DNA of 64,000 bases from Antedon mediterranea (taxonomy: Eukaryota; Animalia; Echinodermata): contig NC_092680.1 of the NCBI RefSeq assembly GCF_964355755.1, positions 2,976,001-3,040,000 of the forward strand, in the 5' to 3' direction. Positions 4,118 to 47,300 of the stretch are shown here, one piece after another. Position 1 is the stretch's first letter, and each line of letters begins with the position of its first letter. Position numbers and translations under genes: made by a program. The notes under the pieces are model-generated. The model was not told the origin of the DNA, did no database searches, and saw only the letters and a list, made by a program, of their open reading frames with translations.

Positions 4118-4322
4118 CACGCCTCCAAAAATGAGTTCCAAAAGGCAAGAGAAGAAAACTGTTTAAAATAAAAACAAAAGAAAGTAATTGTACAATGATC
4201 TACAGTATCAGTTTAAGATACAAAAACCAATGTTATTTAGAATAATAATAATATGAATAAATAAATACGGAATCATGAAAAATGCTTCATTAATTTGTAT
4301 GAATACCGAACATCAGATTTAG

Positions 4323-9039: not shown

Positions 9040-9075
<36 letters not shown>

Positions 9076-18880: not shown

Positions 18881-21800
18881 TTATTCATCTACACTTTCCT
18901 TTGAAACCGCTAATGTTGATTTTTTAAGCAATGGTATTTTCTTTCCATTGTCACTTTCTGACTTTTTGTCTTCACTCTCTTTTAAGGCTTTTGAAATTTC
19001 AGCAATGCTCTGTTTTCGTTCTACTTTCTTCTCCTTGTCCTCTTGATCTGTCCGCTGCTTGGCGACCAGTGCTGACCAATTCTGCAAATTTTTCCTATTA
19101 AGTGGTAACAAACAAAATAACACATTTTAATACACATTAAAGAATAAATAATTGCAATTTTTTAGTTTAATTTAGTTTTTCCAACTTTTCTAAATCCTTG
19201 ATTTACACCGAAGTGTTTAAGGCGATGTCATGTATAATGTTACCAAAGTTGCTGGGCCAATTTGGATTTTGAAAGTACTTACGATGCACCATCATATAGT
19301 GGCTTACTCCCTGGTACTAATTTGTATAGTAACTCATAGCATGGCAAACATATACCAACAATAAACGAAACCTGAAAAGTAAAAACATAAATAAAAAATA
19401 AATGATGTTATACTTGTAAGCCACAGATTAAAACTGTATTTACATCATTTAATATAAAAATAGTACATTCTTATGTGGTTTCATAATCTGAACTGGTTAT
19501 TCCTTTACCATATACTAATAAATATATAAACATTAAAAAAAATTATATTTATGGATATCTTTATTAACCTATAATTCAAATTCTTACTTGGTTGGCAGGT
19601 AGTTCATGTGCTTTGTCCCTATCCATCATTGGAATTGGCTTTTGGCCTTGTGCTTTCTCTTCATCTCCCTAAACATAAATTAAACAAAATCGTAGAAATA
19701 TTGCAGGCTAATTATGTTTTAAAATTGGAACCCTTTACTTAGACCTTGTTTCTATATGATACAAACTAAACATATATATTATCTACCTGGGCCCTCTTAT
19801 CTTATCTGGGAAAACAGTTTTTAAATGAATAGGTCACCCAGTATAACAAATAAATTATTAAATCTAGGCCCTTAAAACAAGAGAGTGTCTTTGACTAAAG
19901 AGTATAAAGAATAAATTAATAAATAAATCTAGGCCTAATATGATACTTATGGCAAATGAATTATAAATATAAATTCTATTCAATATCAACAATGTTTTAT
20001 AACATTCAAACAAAAGCACATACATGCACTAAAGATGTGGAACACAACTTAATGTGACAATTATCATCTCAACACTGGTGGAAAATTACAATAATTACGA
20101 TTATATATCCAGTAAACAGCACACATTTTTCTACAAATTTTATATAAGAATTTTGTAATAAGGATGTCATTGGAAAGATTAAAATTCGACAAAAACAAAG
20201 TTAAAAACCTGTTGGTAGAATTCCTCGAATATATCATAAACAACTTTACTGTGAACATCAAATGGTTTGCTAATAGCTGTTAGATCACATGCAGACATAA
20301 TAACATCATGCGCTAAAGATCTACATTAAAACAGAAATTAACATAATAATGCATATGCAAATAAAGCTTGATGAATATTTAAACATATGCTAATTTTTTA
20401 TACATGCTATACAAAAACATAAATCATGCAAATAAATATTTGATTCTCAGTGCTGTATCTCCACCTACAGCAATATTTGCCAGTATCATAGGAATATTTG
20501 GTAATACAGCATCTCTGTATCATGTTAGGTTACGGTCTATCATGCAAGGTGAAACACATGTGATGGTGTATTATAGAATTCTCCTGTGATGCTGTATTAT
20601 GGAATTCTTTTGTGGTGCTGTATTATGGCATTCTCCTAAGATAGCTAGATACAGTACTGAGAATCGGATTAAAAAAAAAAGTTCATTTTTACTTGGAATG
20701 CAAATATTTATGATTAGCATTAGCAATTATGTTCAATCAATAGGGAAGTTTTGATTTGTAACGACCAAACTACATCGTGTTTAGTTCATTGTGCGCATGT
20801 GGAGATATTGGGACGTGTGTCCTTGCTCTTCATCTCGACACAGGTTTGGTGGTCTCTAGGTCAAGAGGACGATGACCGACGCCAACTTCATTGGGTTGAT
20901 CGTCAGTCGTCACAAATCAAAAGCTCCCTATTTACAGTATAAAATTCAGTATACAAGATTTATAACAACAAAAAATGACAATAAACGATACAAAAAAGCA
21001 TATACAATATGCAATAAGCAATTAGTGAAAACAAGATGCTGAAATGAGTGAAATGACGTTACACAAAACCACTGAACTGAGCCATTCCAAGCTGTGCTCA
21101 TCACCCACCTGCTGATAAAATTCATCAAATATAACTTTAACGGTCTGTTGTTGAATTGACCACGGTTTACTGCTAGCCGAAAGGTCACAGGCTGTCATCG
21201 TGATCGACTTTATGAAGTTTCTAGATTGAGGAGGTTCAATGGCATTATGGATAGATAACTATGTGTTGGAATAGGAAAGTTCTTTTATAAGAATATACTA
21301 TGTTTAAATTGTATTCATACTGCCCTCTTTTAGGCTAAAGCTCTGTCTACACTATCATTTGACAACAAAAGTGTGATGTGCCCAAATATGGTAGTGATAT
21401 ACCCAAATATGGTATTGGTCTGACATCATGTCCATATATGGCCAGGGCACATCACATTTTGTTGTCACATAAAATTTGATAGTGTAGAGAGAGCTTAACA
21501 CTCAACCTTTTAAATACTGTACTGTATATATATATATTCATTCCAAAATTTCTAAAAGTATTGGAATTATTTATAAAGTAAAACATTTACTAAATACATC
21601 AGCTTTATTTAAATTATATAATTCATTAGTTTTGCCTTATTTTACATATTGTTGTGAAGTCTGGGGTAATACCTTTAAAACTAATTTAAATTGTTTATAC
21701 ATATTACAAAAAAAGGCACTCAGACTTGTTATGAAAGTCCCATACACCAGTCCAAGTAAACCAATTTTTAATTTTTTTAAAACTCTTGATCTTTATAATT

Positions 21801-23337
21801 TAATAAAACTATATACCGTCTCTCTAATGCATAAAGCTTTTCATAACTTACTCCCAGTGATTGTTCAAAATAATTTCATTTTATGCTCAGCTGTCCACGA
21901 TAAATACACGCGACAAAAACACCATTTCTACCCACAATTTAAAAGAACCACTCAAAAATCATTAAGTTTAGTTAGTAAAGGGGTTGAACTTTGGAGTGAT
22001 ATACCTGAGACTCTTAAGTTACTTAAGAATCCTATAACTTTTAAAATAAAATACAAAAATAAATTACTTTTGCAATACTCTGATTAGAACAGGTTTTTTT
22101 TTTTATCTTTTTTCTTTTTACAATTACATCTTACTCTCTGAGAAATCTTTTTTTTTTTAAGATAAAGAAAAAAAAAGAAACTTTCTTAAAAGTTACATTT
22201 TGTTTGCCTATGCCGTTGTGCCTTTGTTTCATATTACTATTTATAAACTGTTTTGTAACAGGGGGTTTCTACTTATAAGCTGTGCTTCAGAGATTCCCCC
22301 TTTCCATTCTTTCATTTTTGTAATGAATATTTATGTATGTTAATGGTTTTATTTTGTTGTGAATGGAAATAAAGAAACAAACAAACAAATATCACGCATA
22401 TATTATAAAATAGACATTTAGGGTTTGTAGGAAAAGAATAGATCATCACATTTCCAATTTTGGAATTGGTTGTTTTTGGGCAAAAAAATAATTAAATAAT
22501 AATAAAGTAGTATCCAACTTATTACATCTCTGATAAAGTACAATTTTTTTCAAATCGATGCAATATAAAAGATATATACAATATTATATAACAAAACCCA
22601 AATATGATTTAACTTCACGAATAAGTAATAATAATGAAACAGACAATAAGTACCTATGTGATTGATCCTCCCAGCTAAACTGCTTCTTTTCAATGAGACC
22701 CTTTAACTTGCCCTTGTTTCCAAAGAACAATGCCAGATCTGTTGCCAATATCGAATGTCGTATCTCATTCAGCACAATCTTGTACTCTTCTGAAGTCAGG
22801 TGTCGAAAAATGTTATGGCCGTCATTCTAATAGTACGTAGAAAATGTTTTATTCAAATCTTAATTTAGCATTGACAGCAGATTCACTGTGACAATTTTGT
22901 GAACATGAAGTGAACATAAGCCCTATAAAGATGTGCACTAGTTTGAGCTGTAAACAACCACCAATTGTTTTTTTCTTAAACCTCTGTCTACACTACACTA
23001 GTTTGACAAAAAAAGTGTAATGTGCCCAAAGATGGTAGTGATATGCCCAAATATGGTAGTGATATAACATCATCATGTCCATATATGGGCACATCACATT
23101 AAGTTTGATAGTGTAGACAGAGCTTTATACTGTGTATTCTATTATATCCTATATAAGATTTTTCTAACAAAGTGGCTACATCTATTGTATGCCTATATCT
23201 ACACCTATTGAGAAGATTGGGGCTCTGGGCCTCTAACCTTTAAGAAAAACCATCCCACTAGGCAATGGGTGAGAAAATATGATTTTTTAAAATGGTACAA
23301 ATGGGTTCGAACCATAGCTAGGAGAGTAACCAATAAA

Positions 23338-23371
<34 letters not shown>

Positions 23372-26300
23372 ACCATTAGCACGAAGTTGCAAGACCTATG
23401 CACAGCCCATTCGACCATGATGTTGCGAGACCTACACACTGCCCATTCGACCTGCTTGCGATACCATTAACTCACCTGTAGTATGGTAACAGTCTGGTTG
23501 AAGTGATGATGTTCCATCGTCGACGTTGAATAGATTGCAGCTAGAGGTGTTGCGTTGTTTACCATGTACGAGTTGTTCTTTCCTCTGTGATCAAGGTCAT
23601 GGCACAGACAGGCTATAAACAAAGCCAGTGACTGAAGCAAAAAAGAAATATGTTCATTTTACCGTTTTTGGTAAAAACTGTATGAAGCTGAATGTTCAAG
23701 TATTTATTGTTTGTTGTTTATTGTTGTTTATTGATTTCAACAAATAATATAATTATTTCTTTATAAATGTGGATGGTGGTCAAAATAAATCTAGAAGCAG
23801 ACTTTAAGCAGAGACCACCATTTACAAAATAAAAATAAAAACTGATGACTATCGATTTTGTTCTGATTATTGTCAATGGGTCTATAGAAAAAATATTTCT
23901 CTCTGCTTAGATTAGATGCACCTTGTATTCAGTATCAGTGGCACTGGCTAATTGTAACAATTGTTTCAAATTTAATTTATTTTTGTAATAAAAAAAGAAA
24001 AAATTATAATGCATTTTGAATATTATTTTCTTTACTGATCAATAATAGTTTCTTTAATTATTGCCTCATTTAAATACAATTGTGTAGTTGGTATATAAGT
24101 ACCCTAGGCGCTGATTTCTGTTCTGATGACGAGAATAGTATTCTCAAAACATGTCAAGTAATTTAAGGCAGGTTTGCCTGTTCATTAAATGCTTTACGAA
24201 TTTGATTTTATCTGATCAATAATAGTATTATAATAATTGTATCCAAATGCAGACTGTTTTGATTTTTATTAGTTATCAAAATAAACATGAACCACAGTAA
24301 CACAAAGGAAAAATAAATTTTGTTTTCAATAAGTCTAGTTTTTGTGATGCAATACATTCTTTAAAATTAGCTAGTTATTAAAAAAATATTGACACACAAA
24401 GATAAAAGGATTAAGATAAAAAACATACTTCAAGAAATGTAAAATTGTTGATGTCTGATTTCTTTATGATGGTGTAGACAGTGTGAGCGACCGAGAACGC
24501 ATGAGTCCAGTTGTGGTAAGGTACGTGGCGATAGTTCTTGCGTACAGTTAATACAAACCGACACAGATCATGGTAATCAAACCTAAAATAAAAAAATAAT
24601 GTTTATATTTTATAAATAAACAATAACAACATAATCATTGGTATATGAACAAATATATAATATAAATAAATAAATGTTTTGCCTTAATTTTATGATGCAA
24701 TGCGTCTGATGAGTATTTGAAATGGTTCAACCATTAAAGACTATGTTGTCTAATGATATGATGCTTGCCTTGGTATCAAGAGAGGTTGCAGGTTCGAATC
24801 CTGCAGGTAGCATTTTATCACATGATCATTTTATGGAACTTTAATCTGTTGAGAGCTAATGCTACGCAGAACAATGGTTAATTAAGCACTTTGTTTAAAT
24901 CTTTTTTAATAAGGATAAGAATACGGGCATAAACACCATCTGAAGAATTTGAAAGTAGCATATACAGTACAAAGAGAAAAAGGTGGTATTTGATTTATTT
25001 CTTCTTTTTACTGGGTAACCTCTTCAGTATAAGCTCTGTCCCAAATATGGTGGTGATATTCCCAAATATAGTAGTGATATGACATCATCATGTCCATATA
25101 TGGGCACATCAAATTTTGTTGTCACATACACTTTGATAGTGTAGACAGAGCTTAAGACAGTTCAAAATGGAATTGACTATTTATCTATGTGTTAATCATG
25201 GTAGATACTGTTCTGTGGCATGCCTTAGGCCAGTATATGGTCACCAATGCATATTTTTTCATAAATTGGGACTATTAGTGTCGGTTAAACATTTTATTTG
25301 ATGTAAATGATCAATTATTCTTTCGATAATTGGGTAAGATTAGTGTAAAAAACTATTTATTGATCAAATTATTCATGAACAAGGTTAACATTTTGCAAAC
25401 ATTAAAATGTATGCAATCTATGTGTGAGCACTTTCTATGTTTCCTCATAAAGATGTCTGCCAAGTTTATGCTGATAATAGTCATGTACAGTGTACATTTT
25501 TATTTTGCTTTTTATTCACATAATATAGTTATTTTATTCATGGCCAAGGAATTTACTAGAAATTGTGAATCGGATAACTTGGAATATTAATTATTATATA
25601 AATATTTTTGCATAAAAATACATTAAATGTTATTATCATAATTGAACAAAAACGATTGAGTTATATATAATATTAAATCAACAACAAAATATTAATCATA
25701 ATAGGAGGGATAGAAAAAGGAAATTTAGAAAAGTTTTTTTTTTAAAGGGTTGGATTTTGGAGAGATAGGGACCAAATTGTTAACACAGAAATTAAAAGTT
25801 GCAATATTACCATCATGTCATTTGCATTCATTAAGGCGTTGGCTTTAAAAGTGGAGAGCAAAAGGTTTTATAGAAAATAATATATATAATTATTAATTTT
25901 AATTAGTTAAAACAGTAAGCAAAATAAAACTAAGGTTTTATAAAGACCTTTTTAAATTGAATTAACAGACTATTATAACAAAGAAATATATTTTCAATTG
26001 TATTAGATTTTTCTTACCATAAGCCATATTATGTTAACAAAAATGTAAATCAAAGTGAAGATAAAATTTCAAAAACAATTTAATACATAAACAAAAAATA
26101 TAATAAGGAAAATGATTAAAGAAGAATTGAACCATTGAAGAATTTAATATTTAGAAAAAAGGATATTCTTGCTGAACCAAAAAGATTATTAGTAATATAG
26201 CATTTGGTTTTAAAACAATTAATAAAAAGAATCATATTAAAATTATTAACCACAAAAGGGAAGAAGCATGCGGACAAGTTGTTAAAGTCAAAAAGCAACT

Positions 26301-29300
26301 TGAAGTAGATTCTTCTACCTTTCTTCAAACGACAAAGGACCTTTTCCTGGCCTGAAATAATTATCCAATATACTACTAGTCAAAACATACACACTTGTAT
26401 ACAAATTATGCTAAATAAAATGTGTTATCATTAATGAACATTTAGACACTTTGAAGTATTTAATATTAACAACAGCACAATATACATATCACATTCACAC
26501 CCCAACCTGCCGCAACCACACTTCCTCCAAACCCGCAACCTCATCCTCACCCCTCTTTAAAAAAATGCCAAAAAGAGAGATCTAAGTACAGATAACAATA
26601 TAGCTGATGAACAACTGTTGATATGATTATGTGAGGGCGTGTGCCGCAATGTGTTTACTGATTACTGATTGTGAGATCGTGGTTCGAATTCAACTTTTGC
26701 TCCATTGCTTGTATCCTTTAGGCAAACACTTTACTTACGTTTGCCTCTCTCCACCCAGGTGTATACATCGGTACCCGATTAGGTCAAGAAAAAATTTTGC
26801 ACCGATTACTAGCTGCATTATGGGAGTATGTTTCCATACAAGATCCAAAATAATGTGCAGCGCATTCAGAGATTGCTTATATACGATAAGAATGAACTAT
26901 TATATTATAATGATTGATAATGATGACAATGACAGGGGTTAATAAGAACAGTATTAATGACGCTATGGTAAAAACCCATTAGCAAATACATTACACTATC
27001 TGTAAACAATTAAATACTTTGTTACCTTTGCAAGTCAAACAGCTCCTTAAACATACAGATTACATACAAAGGTTTAGTATCCTCATCTAAACTCCAGGGT
27101 GAAAAATCATATCTGTAAATAAATTATTACATAACAACAGTAAATATTATTGTGTGTAATAGTAAAAAAAATAAGAATATTGAGCAAAAAATATAGCTGT
27201 CTCTGGGATAAAAGAAAACATGACATCCGATATAAAAGAAATTAATTATGGAGCATATAACAAGGATTATTACATAACAACAGTAAATATCATTGTGTGT
27301 AACAGTGAACAAAAATAAGAATATTGAGCCAAAAATATAGCTGTCTCTGGGATAAAAGAAAACATGACATCCGATATAAAAAAAATTAATTATGGAGCAT
27401 ATAGGATTGTATACAGTAGAAACACTATTTATTAAGCTCTGTTTACACTATCAAACTTTATGTGACAAAAAAATGTGATGTGCCCATATAATATGGACAT
27501 GATGATGTCATATCACTACCATATTTGGTTATATCACTACCATGTTTGGGCACATCACAGTAGTTTGATAGTGTAGACAGAGCTTAAATCAGGTTACCTT
27601 GCAAGGTCTGGCACAGGATCAGGCACTTGCATATTTATTAGCTTGGTGAACTCCTCTTCTGAACATTGGCGATGGTAGCTTAAGATCTCTAAGGCTACCC
27701 GGTGTTTTTGCTCTGACCGGCGTATCTTGTCGTACAGTTTGGCGTGATGTAATGCCAGGCCACAGTAAACCGCAAACGTTTCAAAAGCTTGTTCGTCTGC
27801 CCGAGTAAATGCGCCACTCTTTTTATTCACCATCTGCACTACACCGATAATGCTTCAGAAACAAAATGTACAGTATATAGGAGATTGATACCTATGTGCA
27901 TGAAAATGAGCAATAGGAAGATGCTATGACAAATTAGATCTCTAAAGTAGATCATTTTCATCAGGTTTTAATAATGATAATTAATTTCGAGGTTGAATCG
28001 TTGTTTCAAAATGTTTGTCTACCAATCAGAGAGAGTAACAAAATCCTGAAGGAAACAGAGAACAAACCTCTGACATCACAACCTTGAATTGACCAATGAC
28101 AAGCGACAGTACGAATAATCCATCGATTGTTATTGGTCAATCTACTTGCGTTGCAAACAAACAAACTTTATGTGACAACAAAAAGTGATGTGCCTATATA
28201 TGGTGATGATGTCATATTACTACCATATTTGGGAATATCACTACCATATTTGGGCACATCACACTGGTTTGATAGTGTAGACAGAGCTTTAAGCCATGTT
28301 GTACTTACTGTCCTCTTATCTTAATTGGCATACAGAGTAGAGACTTTGTAACATAACCTGTCTGTATATCAACTTGTCTATTAAACCTATCGTCAAGATA
28401 GGCATCAGGGATGTTGAGGATCTCTCCAGATGTTGCTACGTGTCCAGCTACTCCTTTACCAATCGGAAACCTACAGAATGAAAGCAATTATATCTTAAGC
28501 TCTATATACACTATCAAACTAGTTTGACAAAAAAAGTGTGATGTGCCCAAATATGGCAGTGATATTATCAAATACAGTATGTCCATATCATGGGCACATC
28601 ACACATTTTTGTCAAACTAGTTTGATAGTGTGGACAGAGTTTAAATATTTCTTAGGGGAATAATATATCTTTTTATAGTGAGGAAACTGCAATTCTTTAC
28701 AGCTATAGCCCTCTCTTTTCCTTCATCATGTGATCTCACTGTGTGTACTTATATTTCAGAAATTCAGAAATTATTCTGACAGCGCAATCCATCATCGATA
28801 TATCAAATTTCAGATAATTATATGGATTATAGATCAGGTATTAAAATTGATGACATAAAGCTAACTGACTGAAGATAATAAGGTTTGGATATTACAGGTA
28901 AACTATCAAGAAAGTGACACATTCTTTATATTAACATATTGACATATATCAGTAGTCAGAATCATCATCTACACTGATCCAAACTGACTTGCTGTAATGT
29001 ATATGAACGTAAAAAAAACAACAGTATTTTGGTTATCACACACAGTTGCATGGTGTTCAGGAGACAAGTTGAACATCTGGGACGCCTCCCTGGTGACTTG
29101 GGAGGTTTGAACATTGTATTGCCCTGTATAGGTACTAGAGAATGTTTGAGATTGTTCTACAGTAACTACAGTTCAGTAGCTGGAAATACTCCATTAACTA
29201 AATATGGAAATGTAGTCCACTTTATTTACCGTATCTCTTTGTGATCTTTCGTAACAACTTGGCTCCCTTGGCCATCACCTACATCAAATATTCTGGCATA

Positions 29301-32300
29301 TAGCTCTTTGCTTTTGTTGTCCACCAGAAAAAGAGATGCCCTGTCTGCACTTACAAGACGCTGAGCAAAATTCTAAATATAATATATATATATATATATT
29401 AACATATTATTTATTAAATATATGGCCGCTAAAGTGGCACATCATGCATGTACCATACAATTCTAAGTGATTTTATTTTTATAAGGTATATTAGTAGGGG
29501 ATCACGGATGGGAAAATAGCTAGGGCAAGGAAAAACAAAATGTAAGGTGTTTTTAACCATTCAAAAGTGTGAATCATCATCACAACAAGAAGTATAGTAA
29601 TAATTTAGCAAACAGCCTTTTTTGAACTCTTCCAAGAAATATATTTTTCAAAAAACATCAATTTTGGGGTCATTTTAGGATGTTGTCTGACCTTTTAAAA
29701 TTGGCAGTAGAACCCCTATTAAGGGGAGACTTTCCCATGAAACACACACAAAATAATATGTTGCCAATTTTAGTCAATGCCTATTCAGGGGACACCTGTA
29801 AAATAAGGGAAGACATTTTTGTATCTAAAAGGTGTCTATTTCAGCATAGAGATATTATAGTGAATATCTCTATGATTTCAGGTACTGTATCTATACTTGT
29901 ATCTTTTTGAGGAAAGAGTAATATTTGAGGAATTTTAAATGTGTAGTAGTACTTCTGTGTATAATTGTAAGTAAATGAAAATGATACCTGTCATAGGTCC
30001 CACTTAAGAACTATTATTAATGTGAAATATCCGAAAAAGATTAGCAATAATAAGTTATATTTGGTAACAAATACTAAACCTTTATCTGAGAATGTAAATA
30101 AACTTAGGTGGTCTATGCTTGGCCATATACTTAGAATGAGTGAAGATACTCCTGCTTTTTCAGCATTGGTGTTTGGTATAGTACACTCTAATTCAATAAA
30201 AGGGCGAATTGGAAAACATCAAACCAATCTGTTAAGTACACTTAGAAATGATTTATTTATCAGATTTTTAAGATAAATAATTTTAACGACCTAATTAATT
30301 TGCGTGAGATTGCCAGTAACAGAAATAAGTGGCTTTTGTTATTTTGAATCTTTATTTTTACATTATTTTATATTTTTTGTTGTTGTAGGATGCATGCATA
30401 TAAGAACGTATCAGATTTTGTAAATCCACAGTGCGTGGTTTTGTTACATTTTTTGGAATAAAGTTACCTATATATATATATATATAAATGAAAATTATAT
30501 TGATTGACACATGAATGTAATAGCTACCAGGGAACTAAAAATCAATAAAGCTGCATTATGAAATATATATCTCACCATTATTTTCATAATGACACTGTCC
30601 ATACTTATTATATCTTGAAATATCGATCTATATGAAATAATAATGAGGGTGGGAAAAGCATTCAATATAAAAATAACACAATTAACATCAAGCATTTGGT
30701 TAGGTACATCAAAATATAAACTCTACTAAGCATAACCTTGGTAACAAACAATTAAATTATTTTTGAATATTAAACAAAACTAATCAAACGACAGGCTTTG
30801 ATGTGATTAAGTTTCACAAATTTCATTTCTTAATCAGCCCTTGATTATATTTTTCAATCAATAATGTGATTAATTTTCCTCATGGTTAATTGACGCCAGT
30901 GCATATTTTTTCATCAGTTTAAATGCCCACACGTCTTTGATTCTTGCATATTTTTTTATTTATTATATAACTTTACATTTCAAAGATGTATACACTTTAA
31001 ATTACTCTTTGAGATTGAGATGTTTAAAGCTCTGTCTACACTATCAAACTTTATTTGACAAAAAATGTGATGTGCCCATATATGGACATGATGATGTCAT
31101 ATCACTACCATATTTGGGCATATTACTACCATATTTTGGCACAACACACCTTTTTTGTAAAACTAGTTTGATAGTGTAGACAGAGCTTTCGACAACCAGG
31201 TTGACGATCTAAGTTTGGCCGCCCTGTGGTTCATAAAACTTCTTTGTTATTTTACAAATATTCAGATACATATTGGATGAAAATACAGTGATTACATTTG
31301 CTATTGGCAAAACTTGGCAATATGCCAATGTAATCAATAAAAATATAAATCATAATTAATTATTACTCCACTTACTTCGTAACGTTCATTATAAAATCGT
31401 TGAGTTTTCTTTGCCGCGTCATGTTTTGATAAATCTAATAAAAAAAAAATAATGTAATATAAAAATTATAATAATTTTTTTTAAAAATACAAAAAATGAT
31501 GAAATAGATTGTGCTATTTTAGATTATAGATCAAATTATTATATATACAATAATATAAACAATATTTTATTTTAGATTGCAAGATAAAATTTAAAACACA
31601 AGGGTCTTATGTAATAAAATAAAATTACTAGTAATGTAAAAAAAAATAATTGAAGATGTTTTTAAAGATATTTAAAGAGTTTAACCATTTTAAAAACATA
31701 TCAATTCCCTCACATCTATTAAGCCGTGAATTTAATGTTCTCTAAAAACATAAGCAGGAAATCCTCTTTATATAAATCTGTTGACCTTTTAAACTAAAAA
31801 CAAGATAATCAAGAATCTGTTTACATTACTACATTGTACAATTCTATTTTTCTTATTCGTCTGTATATTATTATTATAAAAATGTAATATAATTTTATGT
31901 ATGAAAAACTCAAATTACATTTATCAGTTGTATTTGTAAAATGTTATCTTAAAATGCTGAAGTGATAATTTGGATGTTGTTTATGTTTATTACTCTTTTT
32001 CAATACATCAAAACAAATTTAAAACAAAAAAAATATGTCTCAGGGTGGGCTTAAATCCAGATTGGGACCTCAGGGTGAGCTTGTACAAAGATACACTTAT
32101 GTGTGAAAAACTTAAATTACATTTATCAGTTGTATTTGTAAAATGTTCTCTTAAAATGTTGACGTAATAATACATATCCATTTGGATGTTTTTTTGCATT
32201 TATTACTCTCATTCAATTCATCAAAACAAATTTAAAACAAAAAACCTTACAACTTGCACGTCATTGTAAGATAAGTACGTGTTTGCTGTACTATTGAAAC

Positions 32301-35300
32301 ATGTAATAAACAACTAATTAAAATTATGAGTTAAATTCTCAAAATGCTGAGCATGCAATATAGAATTATCAAATAGAACGTTTTACAGTGCAAGGAACAA
32401 ATACTGTTTGATATTAACCGATCAACTTCCAAGAACGGACATCAAATTAATCAGTTTTATCAACATACTGTATGTAGTATATGCGTTCATTCATTATACC
32501 TATACAAACAATGTTTAAGAACATTAATGTTTTTAAACTAGCAAAAGATAATGTCCATCTAATACTACTTCCAATCTCATAATGTTGCCATTAAAATATC
32601 TAAAACAAATTAATTTCCCAAAATAGGAGTAATTAATTTCAAGAAAGCTACCTTCAATCAGAGAATTTGAATTTAATTATAGTAATAAAGTATAGCATGA
32701 TCTTGTTCATATAGATCAATACAATCATTAGCAATAACTACTTACAGGTATAAATATATTTTTTAGTCGAGCAGGTTGTGTTTTATCTTATGATGGGCTT
32801 ACAGATACAGATTCCTTTTATTATCCAATATAATGGAAATTAAAGTGCTCATAGTGCTTGGCTTGCCTAAATATAAAAATATGTCTGAGTCTCAGGGTGG
32901 GCTTAAATCCAGGTTGGGACCTCAGGGTGTGAGCTTTACAAACTGAATATGCACTCAGAATATAACTATCAATACTGTTCTTTTTCTAAATTATTTGTCA
33001 ATTTTGTTTTTCTAATTTTTTCCTTGTTTTCTTTATACTTGCCCCAAGTCTATATTTATTGTCTTTTTATGTATATTTAACCAGTCGACGTTTTAATACG
33101 TATGAAACGCCATATGTGCCAAAATATTTATCTTTTTACTAATATTAAGCCATATAAACGTCTGTATGAATTGATTGAATATTTCAGATTTTTTTTTTAA
33201 TATCACGAAAGATAATCTCAATTTGCCAAAGTAGTAATTATTACATTCATGTTTCATAATATTCTCATTAAAACCTCTAACAAGGAATTAATTCCCCAAA
33301 AGTAATGCATTTCATGAATGATTATGTACTTTCATTGTAACCTGAGGCTAGAATAAGCATCTACTGTACATTAATATTTAAAATCAAGATTTATAACTAT
33401 ATAGTTGCACTGATGAAGGGCTAGTGTTGCCCGAAAGCTCTACTAATTTTTCTGGCTGTTTTACTTTATCGTTTTGATTTAGCTTTCTGCTTACTTTATT
33501 TTGTATCTCCATTGATATCCAGCCACTGATACCCACAGCATTGCCATCTTGTCAGTAATTTGCCTTTGAATTACTGTATAATATTTAAAAGGAACAATAA
33601 CAATGTTGGCTATAAACTATGAAAGTATTTTATTATTTTACAAAGATGTATTGTTATTAATATTTATTTCTTAAAACTGGACCTAGTATTGATATTTCAC
33701 CTAAAACATGGTTATCTATTTGTATAGTGTAATCTTTTAAGTTTCCTTTAAGCATGGAGGGTGGAATATGATGTTGTTTAGGCTTTTCTGTCTGTGTAGT
33801 ATATGTATTTATTATTGAATTCATTCTTGTTGTATATTAATTTATGAAAATATTGTACTGTAATTTTCGGTGAAATTCAATAAGTGAATAGAAATGTATT
33901 CATGTGCAGAATTAGGAGAAACAGAGGATATTATATACTGAAGTGGAGTGTAGCCTGGGGAGAATGACATTTATCTGCAATCAACCCCCACGCTCTGCTG
34001 TTAAACTTGTTTGTGAGGAAATAAATCACCATTAGGAACTACATGTAGATAAATGGTTTATGACAACACATCAAATTTAAGACAACAATGTTGTCACAAT
34101 CTGTGCATAAATCCTCAGGAATTATATAATAATGAATCTTTATGAATTGAAATATTCCTTAATTTAACGAATACAAAACATTTATTATTTGTTTTATAAC
34201 ACACCTACTATGAATAATTTCAACAACAGTACTACATAGGTCTAGGCACAGGACTAGACTTTTAGGAGACAGAAATCCTAGCAAAACGGAAAATTTCACT
34301 GATAAACTCCTGTTCTAATAGAGCTAATATTGAACGACATGTGAAACATAATTAACAAATCAAATGGCAAGAAAACACAAAATTTCACTGATAAACTCCT
34401 GTTCTAATAGAGCTAATATTGAACGACATGTGACACATAATTAACAAATAAAATGGCCAGGAAACACTCTGGTATGTTATAACTCATAGTACACTCATTA
34501 TTTGTTCAATAGTGCCTTTGAAAAGCTATACCTTTTTGGGACACCTTTATTAAGGAGACACTAGTTCTACAAACAAAATGCAGTATATGCCAGGATTGGC
34601 TGTACTGTTTGCCTTTTTAAAACACTACAGCCAATCCCTATTTAGAGGATACCCGTACTGAGGGTCGACCCGAGGGTGTCCACTAATAGAGGTTCTACTG
34701 TAATTCTTTAATAGTGTAGTGCGAGAACTTACCTCATTCTCATAGTTTGAAGAACTAACGTGCTATAGACAAATATTCACCAAACAACATTGATTAGGTA
34801 CATAAAAAAAGAAAAAAAAAGGTAGTGAAAGGATTTAAATTATAATGTGAGAATACAATGATAGATAGAACAAGAAAATAACATATAAGATTTTTTTTGA
34901 CAAAAAAAAAATATACATATATATAAATTTACATCAAGTTTGTTTAAGTACTAATACTTGAAATGATGAAGGGCTAGTGTTGTCCGAAAACTCTGCTAAT
35001 TTTTATGGCTGTTTTACTTTATCGTTTTAATTTAGCTTTTTGCTTATTTTATTTTGTATCTCCATTGAGATCCAGCCACTGATACCCACAGCATTATTTT
35101 CAGTAATTTGCCTTTGGATTTATATATACATTTACATTTACAATTATTTTAAAATTAAAAATAATTATTATTATTTTTTTTTTAAATCAAACTTTTAATA
35201 CACGATTTTATTTTCCTATTTAACTTCTGACAATTGGAAACTGTATGCATTCTGTGATAATAAACACACCGATCCTAGAAGTGGGTATGTAACACAAGTT

Positions 35301-38300
35301 CATACCTTTCATGTTTAAATCCAACTTTTAATAAAAGATTTTATTTTGCTAATAATAAATCACATAGCGTCGATCCTAAGGGGTGGGTATGTATATTTCT
35401 AAACACAATTTTATATCTTTCATGTTTAAAATAACTAAATACACGATAAATTTTATTAAGCTATGCCACAGCAGATGCTGTCAAACTGCATGCAAAGACA
35501 TATGTATCATAAATGCCAGTTGCTTTATATATTGATGTCAATTTGTTTTTATGTGAATTTTTTTTGCGTTACATAATTTTCTCATTTTTTTGACACAACA
35601 TCGTGTTTATTGAATAAAATTTATATGGCACATTGAAAGGAAACGTGTGACTTCATTATCAATAGCCTCTGAACTGGACTGCATTGCTGTTATCAATAAT
35701 AATGTAAAGAATCGTAATTATGTAAAGACAGTTAATAGTTAAAGATGATGTATTTTCTCCATTAAAAACATAAAACATCATATTTTGAATAGGCCATTTT
35801 GCAGTTTCAATAAAATCATTCATTGCATAGTAAAAAAAGGAACAAAAATAAAAACAAAATAAATGGTTGCATTTAACCAAAAACCATTGTGACAAAATAT
35901 TGACTATTTTTTACTTAAATTACAGTTTTTTCAGGTAAATATTAATATTTTTCCAACTTTTGGTCAAAGTGAATAACTATTATGTTATAAAAAATTATTT
36001 TATAAGGGGGACGATACATCATCCGCAACCACGCCCACATGTGGGAACGTACCAACGTACCACCGTCATCATTTCATTTTCACGATATAGACTATAATAA
36101 TGTTAAGCTCTGTTTACACTATCAAACTTGATGTGACAACAAATGTGATTTTCCCATATATGGACATGATGATGTCATATCACAACCACATTTGGACATA
36201 CCACTAACATATTTAGGTACATCACTACCATATTTAGGCACATCACTACCATATTTAGGCACATCACTACCATATTTAGGCACATCACTACCATATTTAA
36301 GCCTTAAATGATGAGGTATCAACTACTATAAAGTAACAAATGTCAACGTCAGCAATCATCTCAAACGTCATTTAACTGCTATTTTTAAATAAATTGATAT
36401 TAACCTTTGTAGAATGCACTAAAAGCTTGACATTTAAAAGTCAGTATAATGATTATTGAATGTGTTTTGTATGTCTTGTCATACTATATTAATTAGAAAA
36501 AAACTTTTATTGCAGCATGTCGTTTAAGCAAATCATTAAAGTATTACATTTGTTTGAAATAAAAACAATAATTTACAAGACTGTGTCACACTAGTATTTG
36601 TTGACGAGAGAGACTGCAATCCAATTTCTCACTATGAATGCTTGATGTGTGTCCCCTATCCCTACCACCTTCTTTTCCAACTACCAGTATTAGGAAGCTT
36701 TTGATTTGCAACAAATGTTGTATACAAATAAAGTGTTCAACACTCTGTACACTATCAAACTAGTTTGACAAAAAAAATGTGATGTGCCCAAATATGGTAG
36801 TGATATGACATCATCCATATATGGGCACATCACATTTTTTGTCACATAAATTTTGATAATGTAGACAGAGCTTAATGTAATGATGGGTAAACAAAATACA
36901 AAACATGAATAAATATTAAAAGAAAAGTGTAACAATTTTTTTTTTAAATACACAAAATAAATACAATGGCGAGTGATGATGAGTAAGATGAGAAAACTTT
37001 TATATATATATATATTAATGTTATGTAATAATGTTCCTACCTCTGCATAGTAGTAGGCAAGGCTTCCCCATACTAAAAAGTTGCTTGCAATCTAAAAAGG
37101 AAGAAATATCCACAAATCATAATTATCAAAGCCATCTCCTAGTCCTATCTCAATTAAATTCTACATTTAATAAAAAAATATACATTAATCTGTACCCTTC
37201 ATCATTAAAATATGGGACATACCAAAGCATATCAATATTTATGTAATAATAATATATGTTCTAAACTAATTTTTTATGAACGTCAATTTTAGTTCGCAAA
37301 CTTCTGATGGGTGACAAGATCCCTGTTTAAGTCTACAATTATTTGATTATTTATTTTTATATATTTATTATTTTTGTTGGTACTGTATGTAAATCATAGT
37401 GTGTTGGCGACTGTCCAGCAGAACTTTATAAAATATTTATAAAATTAATTTGTTATCATAAATTCAATATAAAAAATATTCTATGCTGTGAATAACAGAT
37501 AATTATATAAAAAAATTGTTATTTAATATAATCATAATTTTCTTGCCAATGACAATATTTTAGGTGACAATACACCTTTAATTTACCTCTTCCTCCGATT
37601 CTGTAAAACCGGGATGGTTGGTCTTTTTATGGAATTCTAGGACACCTGCAACGAACATTACACAAAAAGACTAATAAAAAATGTATCATTGAATCAATAA
37701 AGAGAAAAACAACTTAAGCTCTGTCTACACTATCAAATTAGTTTAACAAAACAAATGTGATGTACCCAAATATGGTATTGGATTTGACATCATCCCTGTC
37801 CATATATGGGCACATTTTTTGTTGTCACATAAAGTGTGATAGTGTAGACAGAGCTACAGATTACAAAGAGATGACGGCAATTAAGGCAAGGAGATATTAT
37901 AAATTAATCCAAACTTGCATTCAGTATATTTTCAGTATAAATGAGGTACAACACACAATAATTTAAAATCAATTGAAACAAACAAAACTGTATGCAAACA
38001 ATTACATCATGCCAACACTTCCGTTTTACCAAGGAGAATCCAGTATTTTTAAGTTATCACCCAGCTTAACATTGATTTTCCCAGTTTTTCACACTTCTCC
38101 GGAAAACAAAATGTAGTTTATTTGAAAGTGTTTTATTAGGCCAGAGTCAACAATCCACACAATACTGTACACAGGCATCAGTTAAAGGTCTACTACAGAT
38201 TAAGTGCCAAAAACCTAGACTGTATTAAAATACTCACTAAACATACTACAGTGTGATGTGCAAAACTAAGAATGTGGAAAGCACAACAGTGTTAAATTGA

Positions 38301-41300
38301 AAGTGATGTAGGCTAAACCAATTTTACAGCATGGCCAAATCTACTATAAGTGTGTGAACTGAAACCACTATACAACAGTGTGAAAAACCTATTATAAATG
38401 TGCACAAAACTGCTATTACAAAACAGAGTGAAAAGTTGATCTAAATATGTATACTTTACAAGCTACTTGCAAAAGAAGATACTAAGAGTACAACAATTAC
38501 TAGAGATGGAACAACTAAACTTATTCACCAGTGTGCCACAAATACTACAGAAGTGCATCAATACTACAAATATACTACATGAGCGTGCCGCAAGAAGTGC
38601 AAAACCACAAAATTACTACAGTAATACATATAAAAAACTGCAGTAACTAGCAATATAGAGATGTTGGTGAAAGTAAAGTGTCCAAAAGTACTACATGGAA
38701 ATTTAGGGAATACTATTTAATATCTTTAAATCATTAGGCTAATATATTCGAATACCATGTATTCTGAAACTACTATAGTCATAAAAAAGTAAAAATCAAA
38801 ATATATTTTGAGCAGCATCTTATTCAATTTCATTTCATCTATTTCGTCTTACATATAACAACAAATAACAAACAATAGAGAGAGACAGGATTCCCAAAAG
38901 CGAACTAAATCAAACTGTCAAGTGGGTCTCCAAAACAACAATAGTGTTAAATAATATTAAAATAATATTAACATAAATCATCAATGAAAAACAAAGGTTA
39001 AATACTAACAGAAATGACTAAAAATAATATTACTGTACCAGCAACTTATATAAACTAATGAAATCATAATTAAAAATAATAATGATATGAAAGCTATGTG
39101 TTTTTTTTTTAAATACAGGTGGAGTTTGCCATAATATTTATGCAAATGAATCCAGGTGGCCGTGAAACACTAAGATGAGAATAGAGAAGAAACACAGTAC
39201 ATGTGAGGAGCTGTGTGTAGGATATGATTGTGTTAATATGTGTTGATACAATGTTGTATAAATACCCATAGCAGCTCCAAACATGTATATGCCTGGAAAT
39301 CCTGATGTTAAGACAAGGAGGGTTAGTCGGGATATTGTTAAGAATGTTTAAAAAAAAGCTTTGGAAAGTAGCAAGCAAGCAATTATGTAAGTTTAAACAG
39401 CAACTCTGGGTTTAATATTGCTTAAACCCTGTCTACACTATCAAACTTTATGAGACAAAAAAATGTGATATGCCCATATATGGACGTGATATGTTATATC
39501 ACTACCATATTTAAGCATATCACTACCATATTTGAGCACATTACTACCATATTTGGGCACATCACACATTTTTTGTCAAATTAGTTTGATAGTGTAGACA
39601 GAGCTTTACTGTGAATGTAGTCATAAATTAAAAAAAAAATACAACTTTCCTACACTGTCATTGTGAAAATATATGATTATTTATACTAAAAACATATTAA
39701 AAATTTGTAGTAATGCTTCCAAGAAAAAGCTATATAAATAGAAGTGTTGATTTACTGGAATGATGGGAATAAAAAATACATTAAATAACACATAGTTATG
39801 ATTGATGTCATAGTATAGCAATTTTAAACCCAGAATTGCTATGTAAATACTCAAAAAGATACACAATACAATAGAAGATAGGAAAATAGTTATATTAACT
39901 CTACTCTACAGTTATGTGTACAAGACAAATGACACAGTCCTTCATCTAAAACAAAACCTAAAGAATCCAAGAATGATAATTATGAGTATATTATAATTAA
40001 TTTAAAGATGGAGGCAGGTTAGTTTTGGTAAACATCAGTCAAAATTAAAGGGAATTGGTAATGTCATCTAGATAAAACTAATCCAAATATTTCTAATGTC
40101 AACTTGATGGCACCTAATACAATTCAATTTGGCATTTAAGTCACCTCATTCTGAGGGTAGAATATTGGGTTTTTTTTAATGTTGAAAATGACTTGCCAAC
40201 CAGTTCGGTTATGTAAATTACTGACAAAATAGTGCCTTGATTATGGAAAGAGTCATGTATTTACAATTTCTTTGCGCTTGTTATTTCAGACCTCACCTTT
40301 ATACCTTTTTTTGTCTTGATTATAAATTCTTTTCTTCTTATTTTAGCTTGGTCTGATAATGATAATTTTACTGGACTTACAGTTAGAATTTAATCAACAA
40401 AAACTTAATTTCGAAGCCTCTGAATTAGCAATTGGATATCAGATAATTTGAATAATCACTTTATGAATGACCTAGCAAGAAAATTATAGTTAAGATTCAT
40501 AAAATTGATTAACGACTGAACGTACTTACCAGATACATTGTTATTAGCATGAAAAATGGGTAGGCCTAGAGCGGCTTTGATTGTTGTGTCCTTAAGTGCA
40601 AGGCCTTCCGGATACTGCGTATGCTAAAGTTAACATATAAAGCTTGATTAATAATGAATCGTTAAGGGTAAAAAACATGATTACATTGAACATTCATTAC
40701 ACAGTATCCATCCAAATAATGGACTCGTTACTGAAGATTAATTTCTCTTCGTATCTTTAGGAGGCTACATTTTCTTATTTTTAATAGCATTAATGGAAGG
40801 TTATAATGGACATGATTAGTAATTACACACTGTGAGTGAGTGTGACTGTGACAGCAATTGTATGCAGAAAACCACATACTACATTTGATGGAAATTTGAA
40901 GTATAATCTCTCACAGTAGCTATACTGTAAAGCCTTGTCTACACTATCAAACTTAATGTGACAAAAAAATGTGATGTGCCCATATATGGACATGATGATG
41001 TCATATCACTACCATATTTAAGCATATTACACTTTTTTTGTCACACTAGTTTGATAGTGTAAACAGAGCTTAAAATGCAAAATATGGAACGGTATGAATA
41101 GTATTAAGGTACCTGTATTAAAGTTTATTGTTTAATAGATCAAGATGTTCTATTAAATTTATTTTAAAGACATTACTGAGTAAATTTGCATTGTTGCATT
41201 TAAATTAATTTATTTATATTTTACTGTTTAGATTTAAGATATTTGTTTGGTCGGATATTTTATAATAAGATATTTGGTGCATTTTAAGAAATTTGTTTAA

Positions 41301-44300
41301 TATAAGTTTGACCACTAATATCATGCGTGCTGCCACTTTTGCAAAAGTGAAATTCAATAAATTGATAATTTATTTACGTCAGAAGATTTCACTGTCTATA
41401 TAAAGGTAAATTGTTGTAAATAAATTTAATTTTGGCGCAACCGTTTATTTTTTCAGCATTGGTTCTAGATATAAATAAAAAAATCCTTGATGGCAATAAT
41501 CTTTATGCAGTAAACAACATCCAGGTACTGGTAACAAAACAAGACTTTGAACTAGGATTCAACTTCTAGGAATCGCTTATGGTCTATTACTATTAGAAAG
41601 AGAAATGTCAATAAGACGTCAATCAACTTACCATAGCAGCCAAATCATTTGTACAAACTGCGCTCTGTGAATAGGCCACAAAGCCAGCAAATGTTTTACC
41701 CTTTTCAATTGACCATCTTTGAGAAGAAGAGGTGTCAGGCCTAAAATAAATATGAAAGGATGGAGTTATTAACAACTATAAAGAACAGATTTATTTAAAG
41801 ATGTACAGCATCTTCATAAACATGAAAAAGTGAAAATTAATAAAATCAGACTATGAATACAGTAGGTCATTTTACAATTTTAATAAAGTTAAAGTATTCA
41901 CTTCTGTAGAAAAACAACCCCCAAAAAATACTTATTTCACTTAATAAACACAAAAGAAAACAATTTTTAGCAAAAAAAAAACCTTGTCTGACAGAAATTT
42001 AAGTATTTTTTGCTTTAAATTACATTTTTTCAGGTACATTTTTTTTTCAATCCAGTTTTCGGTCAACGTGAATACGGTAACTGTTACGTTACGATATGAT
42101 TAAAATCTCATATTAAATACAAAATATATAAAAAATTTTGTTAGGGGGACAATATACAGTATCTAAAGAACAGATTCATTTAAGAAATTGATACATAGAC
42201 ATCTCAGTGATTTGTCTGCGTTGGTGTCCCATCATTATTTTTGATAATTTTGTGGAACTCGGCGCTAATAATCTGCCCAAAGGCCAAATTCAAGCAATGT
42301 TTTTATTAAATATGCCAAAGCATTTGATTAAAAATGATTAAAATTTACTTCAGTATACAGTAGTGATGTGTAAAGAAACAAATAACTGCAATTAATTTAT
42401 TATTATAAATTTAATTAAAAATAGCAACTGATTAACAATCAACTCATAATCATTTTTTTTTTAATATTATATTGTGCATGCCCACATGTATGGTAGTGTA
42501 CTGATAGAGAAATGGACTGTATTTATTATATCAGTAAAAAATATCAGCAAGCATATTTTCATCAAATTTAAAATATGTTATGATGTCATCATACCGTAAC
42601 AGTCATGTAAACATTTTATCTACTGTAATTATGAAACTAAAATTTACAAAATGAAAAATATTTTTTAAAATATGTATTATGATCTTTCATCTTGAAATGT
42701 ATTTTAAGTTTAAAAAACCCAAAAAAAAAAACATACCAACTTTCTCCTGGTTTATATTCATACAACTCCTGAAATAAAAATGTGTCTATGTTTAAATTTA
42801 ATTTTTATTCATTTGGTGTTTGCATTTTTTAGAAAAGTTGGAGACAATAATGTCTGCAATAATAGCAAATAACATTTCCAGGCGCCATAATATAAGTTAA
42901 AATACATGCCATTAAAAATAATCTTATGGTGCCACATTAGAATTGTTAAAAACACACACATTATCCTTAATGGAAGAAATTACCAACCACATTACACACA
43001 AAATTGATACTATATTTTGACCTCAAAACCATTATTTATTAATAAGGGAAGTAGATGCTAAGCTTGTGGCTGTATATCACTGCAAGATGCAGAAATTGTG
43101 ACATTTCCAAGTAAATTGTACAAATTGTACAAGTGACATTTAAAGGTACTGTACTGATCAGACATGTAAAAAAAAACTATAAAAATATATTTAGAATCAC
43201 GTTTTGCTTTTCAAAAGGCTTTAGCTTACTGTACTATAATGTTTTTGTAAATTACAAAAACATTAGGTATATTACAAATTAGTATTGGATGTGTCCTGGT
43301 TTAGCAAGATCTACACAATATTAACTACGCACCATTTCTGTTTCATTCACAAGGTAAAGTCGATAACTGTCTGCGTTGATTAGCGCCGCAACGCACTCTG
43401 CCAGCTCGTGAAGTACAAACACTTTATGAGGCTGTTGCTGAAGATCTTGTGTAAGCTCAAACAAAACCTTCCGTCGATCTCTTTTATGCGGACTCTGAAA
43501 TGAAAATTAATAGCCATGATGTCTTCAGTATATATGTTAAAACTTGAAACATTCAATAAAGCTCTGTCTCCACTGTCACCACTACCATATTTGGGAATGT
43601 CACTACCATATTTGGGAATGTCACTACCATATTTGGGAATGTCACTACCATATTTGGGAATGTCACTACCATATTTGGGAAAATGACACCTTTTTGTCAA
43701 ACTATAGTTTGATAGAGTAGACAGAGCTTAAAGATATATCGTCCCCCAAAAACATAAAAAATGAAGATTAATTAAGTCAGACTTTGAATATGTTATTTTG
43801 TAGTTTTAATGTTTTTACTTATAAAAAGGCCAAAATAAATGGTTAATATCAACCAAAAATCCCTTGGCTGGCGGCAGCCAATTTGACCATTTTTTTGCTT
43901 TAAATTACATTTTTTCAGGTAAACACATTTTTTTTCCCATCCAATTTTTGGTCAAAGTGGACAACTATTATGTTACAATAAAATGGAATATTCAACAAAA
44001 AAATGTTAAGAATTATTTTTTCAGGGGGACAAAACATGTTTAAGAATTTCAATTCAAACACGTATATCAAATTTTAGAACAAAAACAAAACAAGGTAATC
44101 AGCAATTTGTTCTTATTTCGTTCATAATCATACATATAATATTAAGTCTATTACGTACTATCTTTTTCAAATTGCCCAATATATTATAATTATGGTTCAA
44201 ACATACCATCTATCAATTGGTTTGAAAGAGCATCACATGATTACGAAAAGATTTGACTATCTCGAACGGTGGCATGTTGGACAAATTACCAAATAATATA

Positions 44301-47300
44301 TTATAACTCCTAGTTACTCTTTCCATGCAGGTATTTTATACCTCCATGCTCTTTCCTATGTAAAATGATGTCAACTATCACAATAACATTGACAATTACA
44401 ATGACGTCAATTACATTTTGTTTTTGATCGTGTGCAGGTGTGGATAATGCCATAAACTGCTAGAAATAAACACAAGTCCCACATTTTACATGCTCATGGC
44501 TTGCATCGATATTCAATTTAATATGTACAGTAAGTTGCAGATAAATAAACAATTTGAACAGTACGGATTCATATTTTATAAAATAAATATACTTTGTTTA
44601 CTGTATATTATTCTTATTATGCAAAACTATCATTTGTTATTTAATTTGTAAATATTTTGTTAATAATACAAAAATAATTTGAAGCGTAGTTAATCATAAT
44701 AATGTTTGGACAATGACAAGACTGGCATTCTGTAGTATTTCTTCAGTTTTAATAACTTTAACCAGGGGACATTCACTGCATGCAATAACAACACATCCGT
44801 GGTTAATTGATCAAAATCGCGTCAGAAAATGTTGACTTTATCTCAAAAAGCTTGGCAGATGTAAAATGACTAAAACCTTTCTTGAATACATATTTCATGA
44901 ATATTTTATGATTTTTAACGAGTAAAGGCTGTTTGCTTTTCGTGAATTAACAGAGGAATTATTAACAATTTATTAGAGCCGACGGAATAATAAGTGTCCG
45001 AGGGTCGCGCGTGAGAATTAATAGGTCACGAGTCAAATAACAAACTAGAACACCAACGCTAATAGAAAGAGAATATTTGTGATTAGTCGTTGCTAGGCAA
45101 CAATTAGTAATCTGGCTCAGATGTAATAAGTTCTACTATGATATTTTCTAGAATACCATGACAACACTCTAGGCTAATGCTCCTAAATTGTAAAACATTT
45201 TGGTAATAAAATTTCAACAATAAATTACAAATCTCTCCTTTTTTGTATTTATAACTTTTTAGGATGCCGCTATAAACAAATTTATGATTTTAATAAAAAG
45301 ATTTTGAGCAACACATATTTTTGTAACTGCAGAGTTGAAGAAATATATATATAGGTACTGGTATACAGTACTGTAGGTCATTATGTTATAATTAATTGTA
45401 ATTTTTAAATTTATATGTACCTATTAAGGGCCACAATGGAAATAAGTTTGACCATTGGTTACATTTTTTGTGCTACCCTGAAATTTATTCCTGCCCTTTT
45501 TTTTTAAATGTTACAGTATATTGTTTGAAATTGAATAAAACAAATTAAAAAAATGAAAAAAGTTTTTGATAGCACATTCAGCCAATTTTCTTCATATCTT
45601 TGATTTAAACAGGGCAAAACAAGAGCTCAATATACTTACCATCCATCTCATTGATCTTTTGGTGTGGAAATCTCCTAAAAAGAAAACAAATGATTAAAAA
45701 ATGTAACAAAATTCTTTAAACATATCATATCAATCTAATTCCAATAACACTGAGATGATTTCTATAAAATAAAACACGTCGTCTGCCTGTGACGATATAT
45801 AACTTAAAAAGTATAGACGCTATCAGGCAAAAAAACCCCAGTTACAAACACAGAATTAAAGCAATAAGTTAAACTGTGACTATACTGATAATGATATTCT
45901 AGTTTATAAACTTAAGAATAAACTGCAAAAGAATAATACTTTCGTTTAAAACAAAAACAGACATAACATTAATATCCAACTGATTAAAATTTGTAGAATT
46001 ATTGAATTATATAAAAATATGAAATATAAATTTCTATTATAAATTATTTTGTAGATATTTGTCCATTAACATAGATTTGCAAAATAGATGTTTAACAAAA
46101 AAATACACCTTACCGGTGACAGCGTTTTATTTAATGCTTTTGTCTTTCCTCGGCCTCGTGTCTTGTATTTCATATATATATTTCTATGTTTTTTTTTAAA
46201 TTATTATTTTATGTTTATTGCCGAAAGGAATAAAATAAAAAATAAAATAATTATTTAGTTAAATTAATGTGATTGTGACCAATTTCATTTTAAGTTTTAT
46301 AAAGTGAAAGTGCAGCCTAGAGCGTTGGCTACAAAAGTCTTTAAAAAAAAAAAACCCTTGAGAATGGACTGTTTTGAAGGCCATGGCAACCAGAAGCAAA
46401 GGTTATTTGCTGATGTTTGACTGTGTTTAACCTATTGTAAGACCATGGCCCAGAGGTAAAAACCCCTCGAGATTAAATATCAAAGTTGAGAGAGAAGTTT
46501 ACAAAAGACTTGACAGTTATGGCAAGTCAAAGGTTACTGTCGATAAATATAAAATGAAATACTAGTACAATTTTGGTCTCAATTGTTTACTTTATAATGT
46601 ATTCTATTTTCTAAAAGCCAGAATTTTTCGCAATGTCCAAAAAGTCTTAAAATTCAGTTGAGATCATATCAAAATTATACTGTAGTTACTGCAGTAATTA
46701 CATTTGTTTACATTTTGTTTCACTGTACTATTATTTTATGATTACTCAGAAAAGCTTCCTAAATAATTGCATAAACCAGTTTTATATATAAAATGTAGTT
46801 TACTGTCAGTAGAATAATTGATAAATGGTTCCTATACATCTCTTATAGATTTATTGAGTTACTGTACCTTTCCCAAAGTCAGAATTTTTGCAATGTCAAA
46901 AGTCTCAAAGTTCAGTTGAGATATCATATAGGAATTATTTTACTGTGTGTTCCAATGTAATACGTTTATAATTACTCAGAAAAGCTTCCTAAATAATTGC
47001 ATAATAAGGTAGATATATATAAAATGTAGTTTACTAGCTGTCGTGTCAGTGTCAGTAGATTAATTAAATGGTTCCTATACATAGAATTGTATCTTATAGA
47101 ATTATTGAATTACTAATAAGACTAGAGTGAAGGTGCATTTATATAATAATAGTCTATCAACCAGAAGCCATTAGGTCTTCAATTTAAGACAAATCATATT
47201 GACCAATGGAATGATTGTCAAATATCAAGTGGTTAATTTAAACATGTGACTTTAATTGGGTAGATGTCAAGACATATGCTAAAGTGTTTTCTGAAACACT

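Follow-up and report, generated by a model that had tools for sequence, protein, structure and literature searches.

An exon pair inside the PDE pocket

The PDE10/pde-5 gene of Antedon mediterranea carries two tandem-duplicated, mutually exclusive exons, A and B, inside its phosphodiesterase (PDE) nucleotide pocket, and comparison of their sequences across relatives indicates that one gene likely makes two differently tuned enzymes. The gene lies in a stretch of 64,000 nucleotides that was analysed as a whole (the window), and the features needed here are as follows.

18884..59984, minus strand: coding span of the PDE10/pde-5 orthologue, 969 aa, with a GAF region and PDEase_I
22654..22826, minus strand: upstream constitutive exon, end phase 2
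21109..21220, minus strand: exon A, ancestral-type, residues 806-842, with the metal-binding Asp817 and the N-terminal part of helix 14; pocket residues A,S,Q,V,I,F,F
20321..21108, minus strand: intron between A and B, 788 nt, GT-AG
20209..20320, minus strand: exon B, derived, encoding the same stretch of 37 residues as A and modelled in RefSeq isoform X2; pocket residues A,I,H,V,I,F,F
19588..19668, minus strand: downstream exon, with the M-loop and the invariant Gln869

As had been proposed from the letters of the window alone (hereafter the sequence-only reading), A and B are homologous 112-nt exons bounded by AG and GT, both running from phase 2 to 0 and both open, and the peptides quoted for them match; they share 62 of 112 nucleotides and 17 of 37 amino acids. 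Joining the flanking exons confirmed that double inclusion breaks the frame, A plus B leading to a premature stop. Inclusion of neither exon gives a premature stop as well, and A alone or B alone reads through without one. The isoforms X1 and X2 differ at 20 residues, all within 806-837, and each of the seven Antedon RefSeq isoforms carries one copy, six using A and one using B. Two of the predicted junctions, 22654->21220 and 21109->19668, were recovered in a single 2,075-nt contig of run X1, a run taken as RNA by guess only; this contig skips B, its gap from A to 19668 spanning 1,440 nt with CT..AC ends and containing B, and the DNA-like run X3 is continuous over B with no such joint. The other contigs of run X1 leave B uncovered and are uninformative on its absence, and the predicted use of exon B in Antedon rests on RefSeq model X2. 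The contig differs from the window at 21193 (exon A) and 19618 (next exon), both third codon positions. A tblastn search with 15 homologues revealed no further duplicated exons in the window, including no second copy of 19588..19668.

The host gene is a PDE10 orthologue

A neighbouring exon is a 100% match to A. mediterranea pde-5, and RefSeq isoforms X1 (row P0125) and X2 (row P0126) map over 59984-18884. Pfam scores for GAF and PDEase_I are above the cut-off in both isoforms, and the model of isoform B displays two GAF-like alpha/beta regions. In a quick family tree of 49 rows, from which the swapped exons were excluded and in which vertebrate and outgroup rows were labelled by sequence likeness, the Antedon protein falls with vertebrate PDE10, and PDE2, PDE5 and PDE11 lie outside this group (99 SH-aLRT). 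Vertebrate PDE10A and C. elegans PDE-5 belong to this same clade (99 SH-aLRT) and share the catalytic fold, with TM scores of 0.92-0.97 normalised by target; C. elegans pde-5 is described as a PDE10 orthologue without kinetic characterisation in the available part of PMC12346295. The metal-binding set H671, H706-D707 and D817 is invariant across 52 rows, and the invariant glutamine is present as Gln869. Enzymes of the PDE10 family break down both cAMP and cGMP, typically with the higher affinity for cAMP, and bind cAMP at GAF-B.

Several repeats share the window. The 3' end of the coding exon 27851-27597 is present twice more, in degenerate and inverted form, at 55605-56000 (plus strand) in an early intron of the gene, accompanied by flanking repeat DNA and probably carried in by a dispersed repeat. 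A very high-copy, short MITE-like element with terminal inverted repeats occurs at 21329-21505 and many other sites, and a degenerate short tandem repeat of about 6 kb with extreme GC skew occupies ~4300-10000. A possible LTR retroelement is a GC-rich intronic stretch (0.39-0.47) at ~49400-54300, which has nearly identical sequences on its two sides, at ~48600-49070 and ~54500-55000.

Both exons are kept in relatives

Both exons are conserved beyond Antedon: both forms are annotated in 10 of the 14 ambulacrarian species having the segment, out of 16 named echinoderm and hemichordate species looked at through annotations, not genome searches. Among the matches listed, both forms are found in Antedon, Anneissia, Lytechinus variegatus, Apostichopus, Patiria, two Asterias, Acanthaster, Ptychodera and Glandiceps, the A form alone in three ambulacrarian species (one protein each) and the B form alone in Saccoglossus (two proteins); the row labelled Holothuria B takes its label from that species' cluster, in which the protein sits. 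Same-length isoform pairs differ solely in the pocket exon in all ten two-form ambulacrarian species. Three Logan proteins of relatives (934-967 aa) also carry B, and they count as spliced because their contigs measure only 4.3-5.4 kb. Of 36 ambulacrarian species pairs, 35 show more divergence in B than in A. Starfish rows P0150, P0163, P0165 and P0177 and oyster row P0195 are RefSeq isoforms that end soon after the A-type exon; lacking the invariant Gln, they could be truncated or NMD-type products.

Outside the Ambulacraria, both forms are present in at least six bivalves (Crassostrea virginica, Saccostrea echinata, Mercenaria, Pecten, Argopecten and Mytilus edulis), and a model from the snail Bulinus holds both copies in tandem, A first as in Antedon. 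A single form is found among the matches listed in many other molluscs and in Cloeon, Montipora, Nematostella and Owenia, as well as in 19 of 19 amphioxus proteins listed.

Other swapped exons and the origin of the duplication

Exchange of exons in this gene extends beyond the pocket exon. The equivalent of the next exon (19668-19588) is swapped in C. virginica, giving Gln or Glu at the invariant glutamine (P0197 vs P0207), and in the mayfly Cloeon (P0066 vs P0350), and it is doubled in a Pinctada model (P0264); Magallana shows its Gln form, and most mollusc PDE10 proteins listed have Glu at this 'invariant' position. In five molluscs, same-length isoforms differ in 14-16 residues of the first GAF region (P0314/P0320, P0328/P0325, P0197/P0201, P0335/P0332 and P0222/P0091), which suggests a third exclusive exon pair.

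The pocket exons cluster by copy, not by species, with mean identities of 0.79 for A-A, 0.62 for B-B and 0.48 for A-B, and single-form lineages are nearer A than B (0.60 vs 0.51). The duplication is placed before the echinoderm-hemichordate split. Ambulacrarian and mollusc B exons join in exon trees with supports of 91/84 and 97/79, and two proteins with a mollusc-B-like exon sit outside the named molluscs in the gene tree. AU tests, run over 37 columns only, do not reject separate origins (p 0.359, 0.326 and 0.295); the long-branched row P0279 was omitted from the 97/79 tree and from all AU tests, and two exact duplicates from the test with p 0.295. A single older origin of the B copies is favoured. 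A wider scenario, which we consider rather unlikely, would put one duplication of the pocket exon in the protostome-deuterostome ancestor, since when invertebrates would have spliced this exon, its neighbour with the invariant glutamine (Gln/Glu in oysters) and a GAF exon in mutually exclusive fashion, giving enzymes with different cAMP/cGMP selectivity from one gene.

We also considered whether vertebrate PDE10A is a retained B. Its segment identity is 0.33-0.35 to ambulacrarian B vs 0.40-0.42 to A, and its long branch lies apart from the B exons, so this candidate was rejected as unsupported.

Pocket positions and the glutamine switch

Eleven residues after the metal-binding Asp817, exon A has Gln828 and exon B has His828, as the sequence-only reading had pointed out; the equivalents are Tyr329 in PDE4D and His381 in PDE1B. 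The residue letters that this reading gave are borne out by Fig S4 of PMC5617230, which gives Q in PDE5, Y in PDE4 and H in PDE1 at Asp+11, PDE5A Asp764/Gln775 aligning here. The Tyr at Asp+19 (human PDE10A Tyr693) is indeed replaced by Phe836 in both Antedon isoforms, where the same figure gives Y for PDE10; Tyr is not general in the family, being found at this position in the vertebrate rows, in two cnidarians and in Bulinus A. Seven of the 15 specificity positions listed in that figure are supplied by the exon (Asp+3, +4, +11, +15, +18, +19 and +22), and at these seven human PDE10A has S,V,T,A,I,Y,F (PMC5617230), unlike the Antedon exons. All 15 A/B pairs differ at one to four of the seven, the Antedon pair at two (Ser821Ile and Gln828His). 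Asp+4 differs in 14 of 15 pairs and Asp+11 in four; single-form lineages likewise show several residues at Asp+4 (S, C, I, N, A), a position that may be weakly constrained.

The claim that Gln/His at Asp+11 is the point of the system was not supported by the comparison. His occurs in two of 11 ambulacrarian B exons, crinoids only, the others having Gln (6), Ser (2) or Asn (1), and all 21 mollusc exons tabulated have Gln; His at Asp+11 thus reads as a crinoid detail. The likeness to PDE1 hangs on this one residue, PDE1 having His/Pro at Asp+3/+4 where B has Ala/Ile. The glutamine-switch model is itself contested, as the same reading had noted, the kinetics of PDE9 Q453E and E406A speaking against it in the available part of PMC3069055. 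Asn at Asp+3, typical of cAMP-specific PDEs, is found in neither Antedon exon; because both have Ala there, neither isoform is predicted to be cAMP-specific.

More regular contrasts lie elsewhere in the exon. Trp stands at Asp+8 in all 14 single-form rows and all 10 A exons but in none of 11 ambulacrarian B exons, and Asp+14 is Thr in 10/10 A and Val in 11/11 B, so that the contrasts from A to B fixed in ambulacrarians are Trp to Phe/Tyr at +8, Thr to Val at +14 and Asp to Glu at +20. Val is changed to Ala at Asp+15 in seven of 11 ambulacrarian B exons, and mollusc B has Met at both +4 and +19 (12/12). Across nine ambulacrarian pairs, A and B are more alike at the pocket positions (23/63 differing) than over the remainder of the exon (153/270 differing). 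In the AlphaFold model of isoform B, residues 801-850 have block pLDDT values of 94-97 and the model superposes on PDE10A catalytic domains with an rmsd of 1.5-2.2 Å; AlphaFold with a deep alignment would fold either exon.

Control of exon choice

Four TGCATG motifs of the Rbfox type lie in and around exon B.

20541..20546, minus strand: TGCATG upstream of B
20425..20430, minus strand: TGCATG upstream of B
20288..20293, minus strand: TGCATG within exon B
20023..20028, minus strand: TGCATG downstream of B

Exon B with 250 nt on either side, a span picked after the motifs were seen, thus holds four of the window's 19 sense-strand TGCATG, and each of the other 26 exons has at most one (Poisson p 7e-5; 0.002 over 27 exons). 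Only three of 1,412 hexamers of similar frequency reach four copies around B. Rbfox sites upstream of or inside an exon generally repress. From these motifs we infer putative Rbfox control of the A/B choice; (U)GCAUG, the motif of Rbfox, governs the duplicated exons of SCN, according to the available part of PMC12772994.

Two other means of exclusion were considered. Steric exclusion by a distant branch point left no sign, the previous AG lying 46 nt upstream of the B acceptor, an ordinary acceptor zone. Among the 25 longest of 88 inverted pairs, whose arms are mostly AT-rich or repeat, no convincing docking site for competing RNA pairings was found.

Competing explanations

We lean, with moderate confidence, towards the explanation that B in place of ancestral-type A would retune the nucleotide pocket, in affinity, turnover or cAMP:cGMP ratio, with no Gln/His flip. 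The exclusive exons, which encode 37 residues in the region of helix 14 and the metal-binding Asp, would do so through several positions acting together (Asp+4, Asp+8 Trp>Phe, Asp+14 Thr>Val and often Asp+15 Val>Ala), to which lineages would add extras such as His at Asp+11 in crinoids. Exon choice would be tissue-regulated via the Rbfox sites clustered on B and, because double or no inclusion breaks the frame, nonsense-mediated decay would clear double-inclusion and double-skipping transcripts. Differing kinetics of the A and B enzymes are plausible. Against pocket retuning, relaxed selection would equally yield the faster divergence of B, and the smaller difference at pocket positions than in the rest of the exon tells against a pure pocket story. 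That the exons alter regulation instead of substrate handling, with basal activity, GAF activation or partner binding differing, is less probable but the main competitor: the greater part of helix 14, a helix that gates the site and touches both the H-loop and the M-loop, is replaced by the swap, the majority of A/B differences fall outside the seven pocket positions, and the adjacent M-loop exon is swapped in other lineages. In simulations of PDE5, helix 14 (772-797) shifts between closed and open, with a Glu780-Lys810 bridge to the M-loop (available part of PMC10367598), and Asp+16, the equivalent of PDE5 Glu780, is Lys in 10/10 A exons but another residue in those B exons that were tallied. 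This gating is known from PDE5 simulation, however, not from PDE10, and every pair differs at some listed pocket position too.

Pocket retuning also has to be set against two explanations that we regard as improbable. One is a re-orientation of Gln869 by Gln vs His at Asp+11, turning a cGMP-specific A into a dual-specific B. Exon A does have Ala, Gln and Trp at PDE5 positions 767, 775 and 853, among which a hydrogen-bond relay runs in PDE5, and Asp+11 has changed in B twice (crinoid His, hemichordate Ser/Asn) while A keeps Gln in 10/10. His at Asp+11 marks the dual PDE1 and PDE3, but it also occurs in a Plasmodium PDE listed as cGMP (PMC5617230); moreover, 11 of 15 pairs keep Gln in both exons, and the PDE9 kinetics cited above (PMC3069055, in part) count against this switch. 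The other, given equally little credence, is that B, at least in crinoids, is a minor copy under weak constraint and makes no meaningful functional difference. B is used by one of seven Antedon and one of four Anneissia RefSeq isoforms, and between these two crinoids its identity is 25/37 vs 34/37 for A, roughly fourfold the divergence (12 vs 3 differences). Yet in four echinoderm classes and three hemichordates B keeps its reading frame and retains Asp, Lys-Pro and Glu-Phe; it also has fixed residues of its own, is identical at 33-36 of 37 positions among starfish and outnumbers A among the annotated isoforms of Apostichopus, Ptychodera and Glandiceps.

Known systems and significance

Exclusive homologous exons at enzyme sites are already known. 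KHK, PKM, PFKP, ACOX1 and CAMK2D have ancient ones at or beside the ligand site and, like Antedon, keep the catalytic residue in both copies, in the available part of PMC9741552; pocket positions are kept between copies at 63% here (40/63) vs 80.6% of ligand residues in that human set. Unlike these human enzymes, PDE10 has up to three of its exons swapped by lineages. The exons 5a/5b of SCN-alpha resemble A/B in being duplicated, exclusive and associated with clustered TGCATG; SCN-alpha, however, is an ion channel in which Rbfox control was tested, whereas in Antedon motifs were only counted, and the available part of that preprint holds that NMD is not the main cause of exclusivity (PMC12772994). 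Variation among human PDE10A forms lies mainly at the N- and C-termini in the available part of PMC12571622, and the available part of PMC12346295 lists one isoform of C. elegans pde-5, whereas Antedon swaps the pocket exon.

No described case of a PDE pocket exon swap was found in the literature searched, a coverage mostly excluding subscription journals, which agrees with what the sequence-only reading had held. In the supplements of the human exclusive-exon catalogues (PMC9741552, PMC8373072 and PMC5740500) no PDE was found save a 50-nt PDE4D exon with an intronic candidate, and the main text and supplement of PMC7954323 gave no PDE pocket case; the gene lists in these supplements may be incomplete. 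The PDE pocket pair is apparently undescribed, even though A/B exons are already present in automated annotations. It contradicts the usual view that PDE splice diversity lies at the termini.

How near-identical PDE pockets separate cAMP from cGMP is unsettled, according to the available parts of PMC3069055 and PMC12982385. The A/B isoforms are natural matched pairs, with the same scaffold and 15-22 residues changed, older than the echinoderm-hemichordate split and varied by lineage, Asp+11 being His, Gln, Ser or Asn, the clamp having Cys in starfish and the invariant site Gln or Glu in oysters. Such pairs would make the specificity question directly testable.
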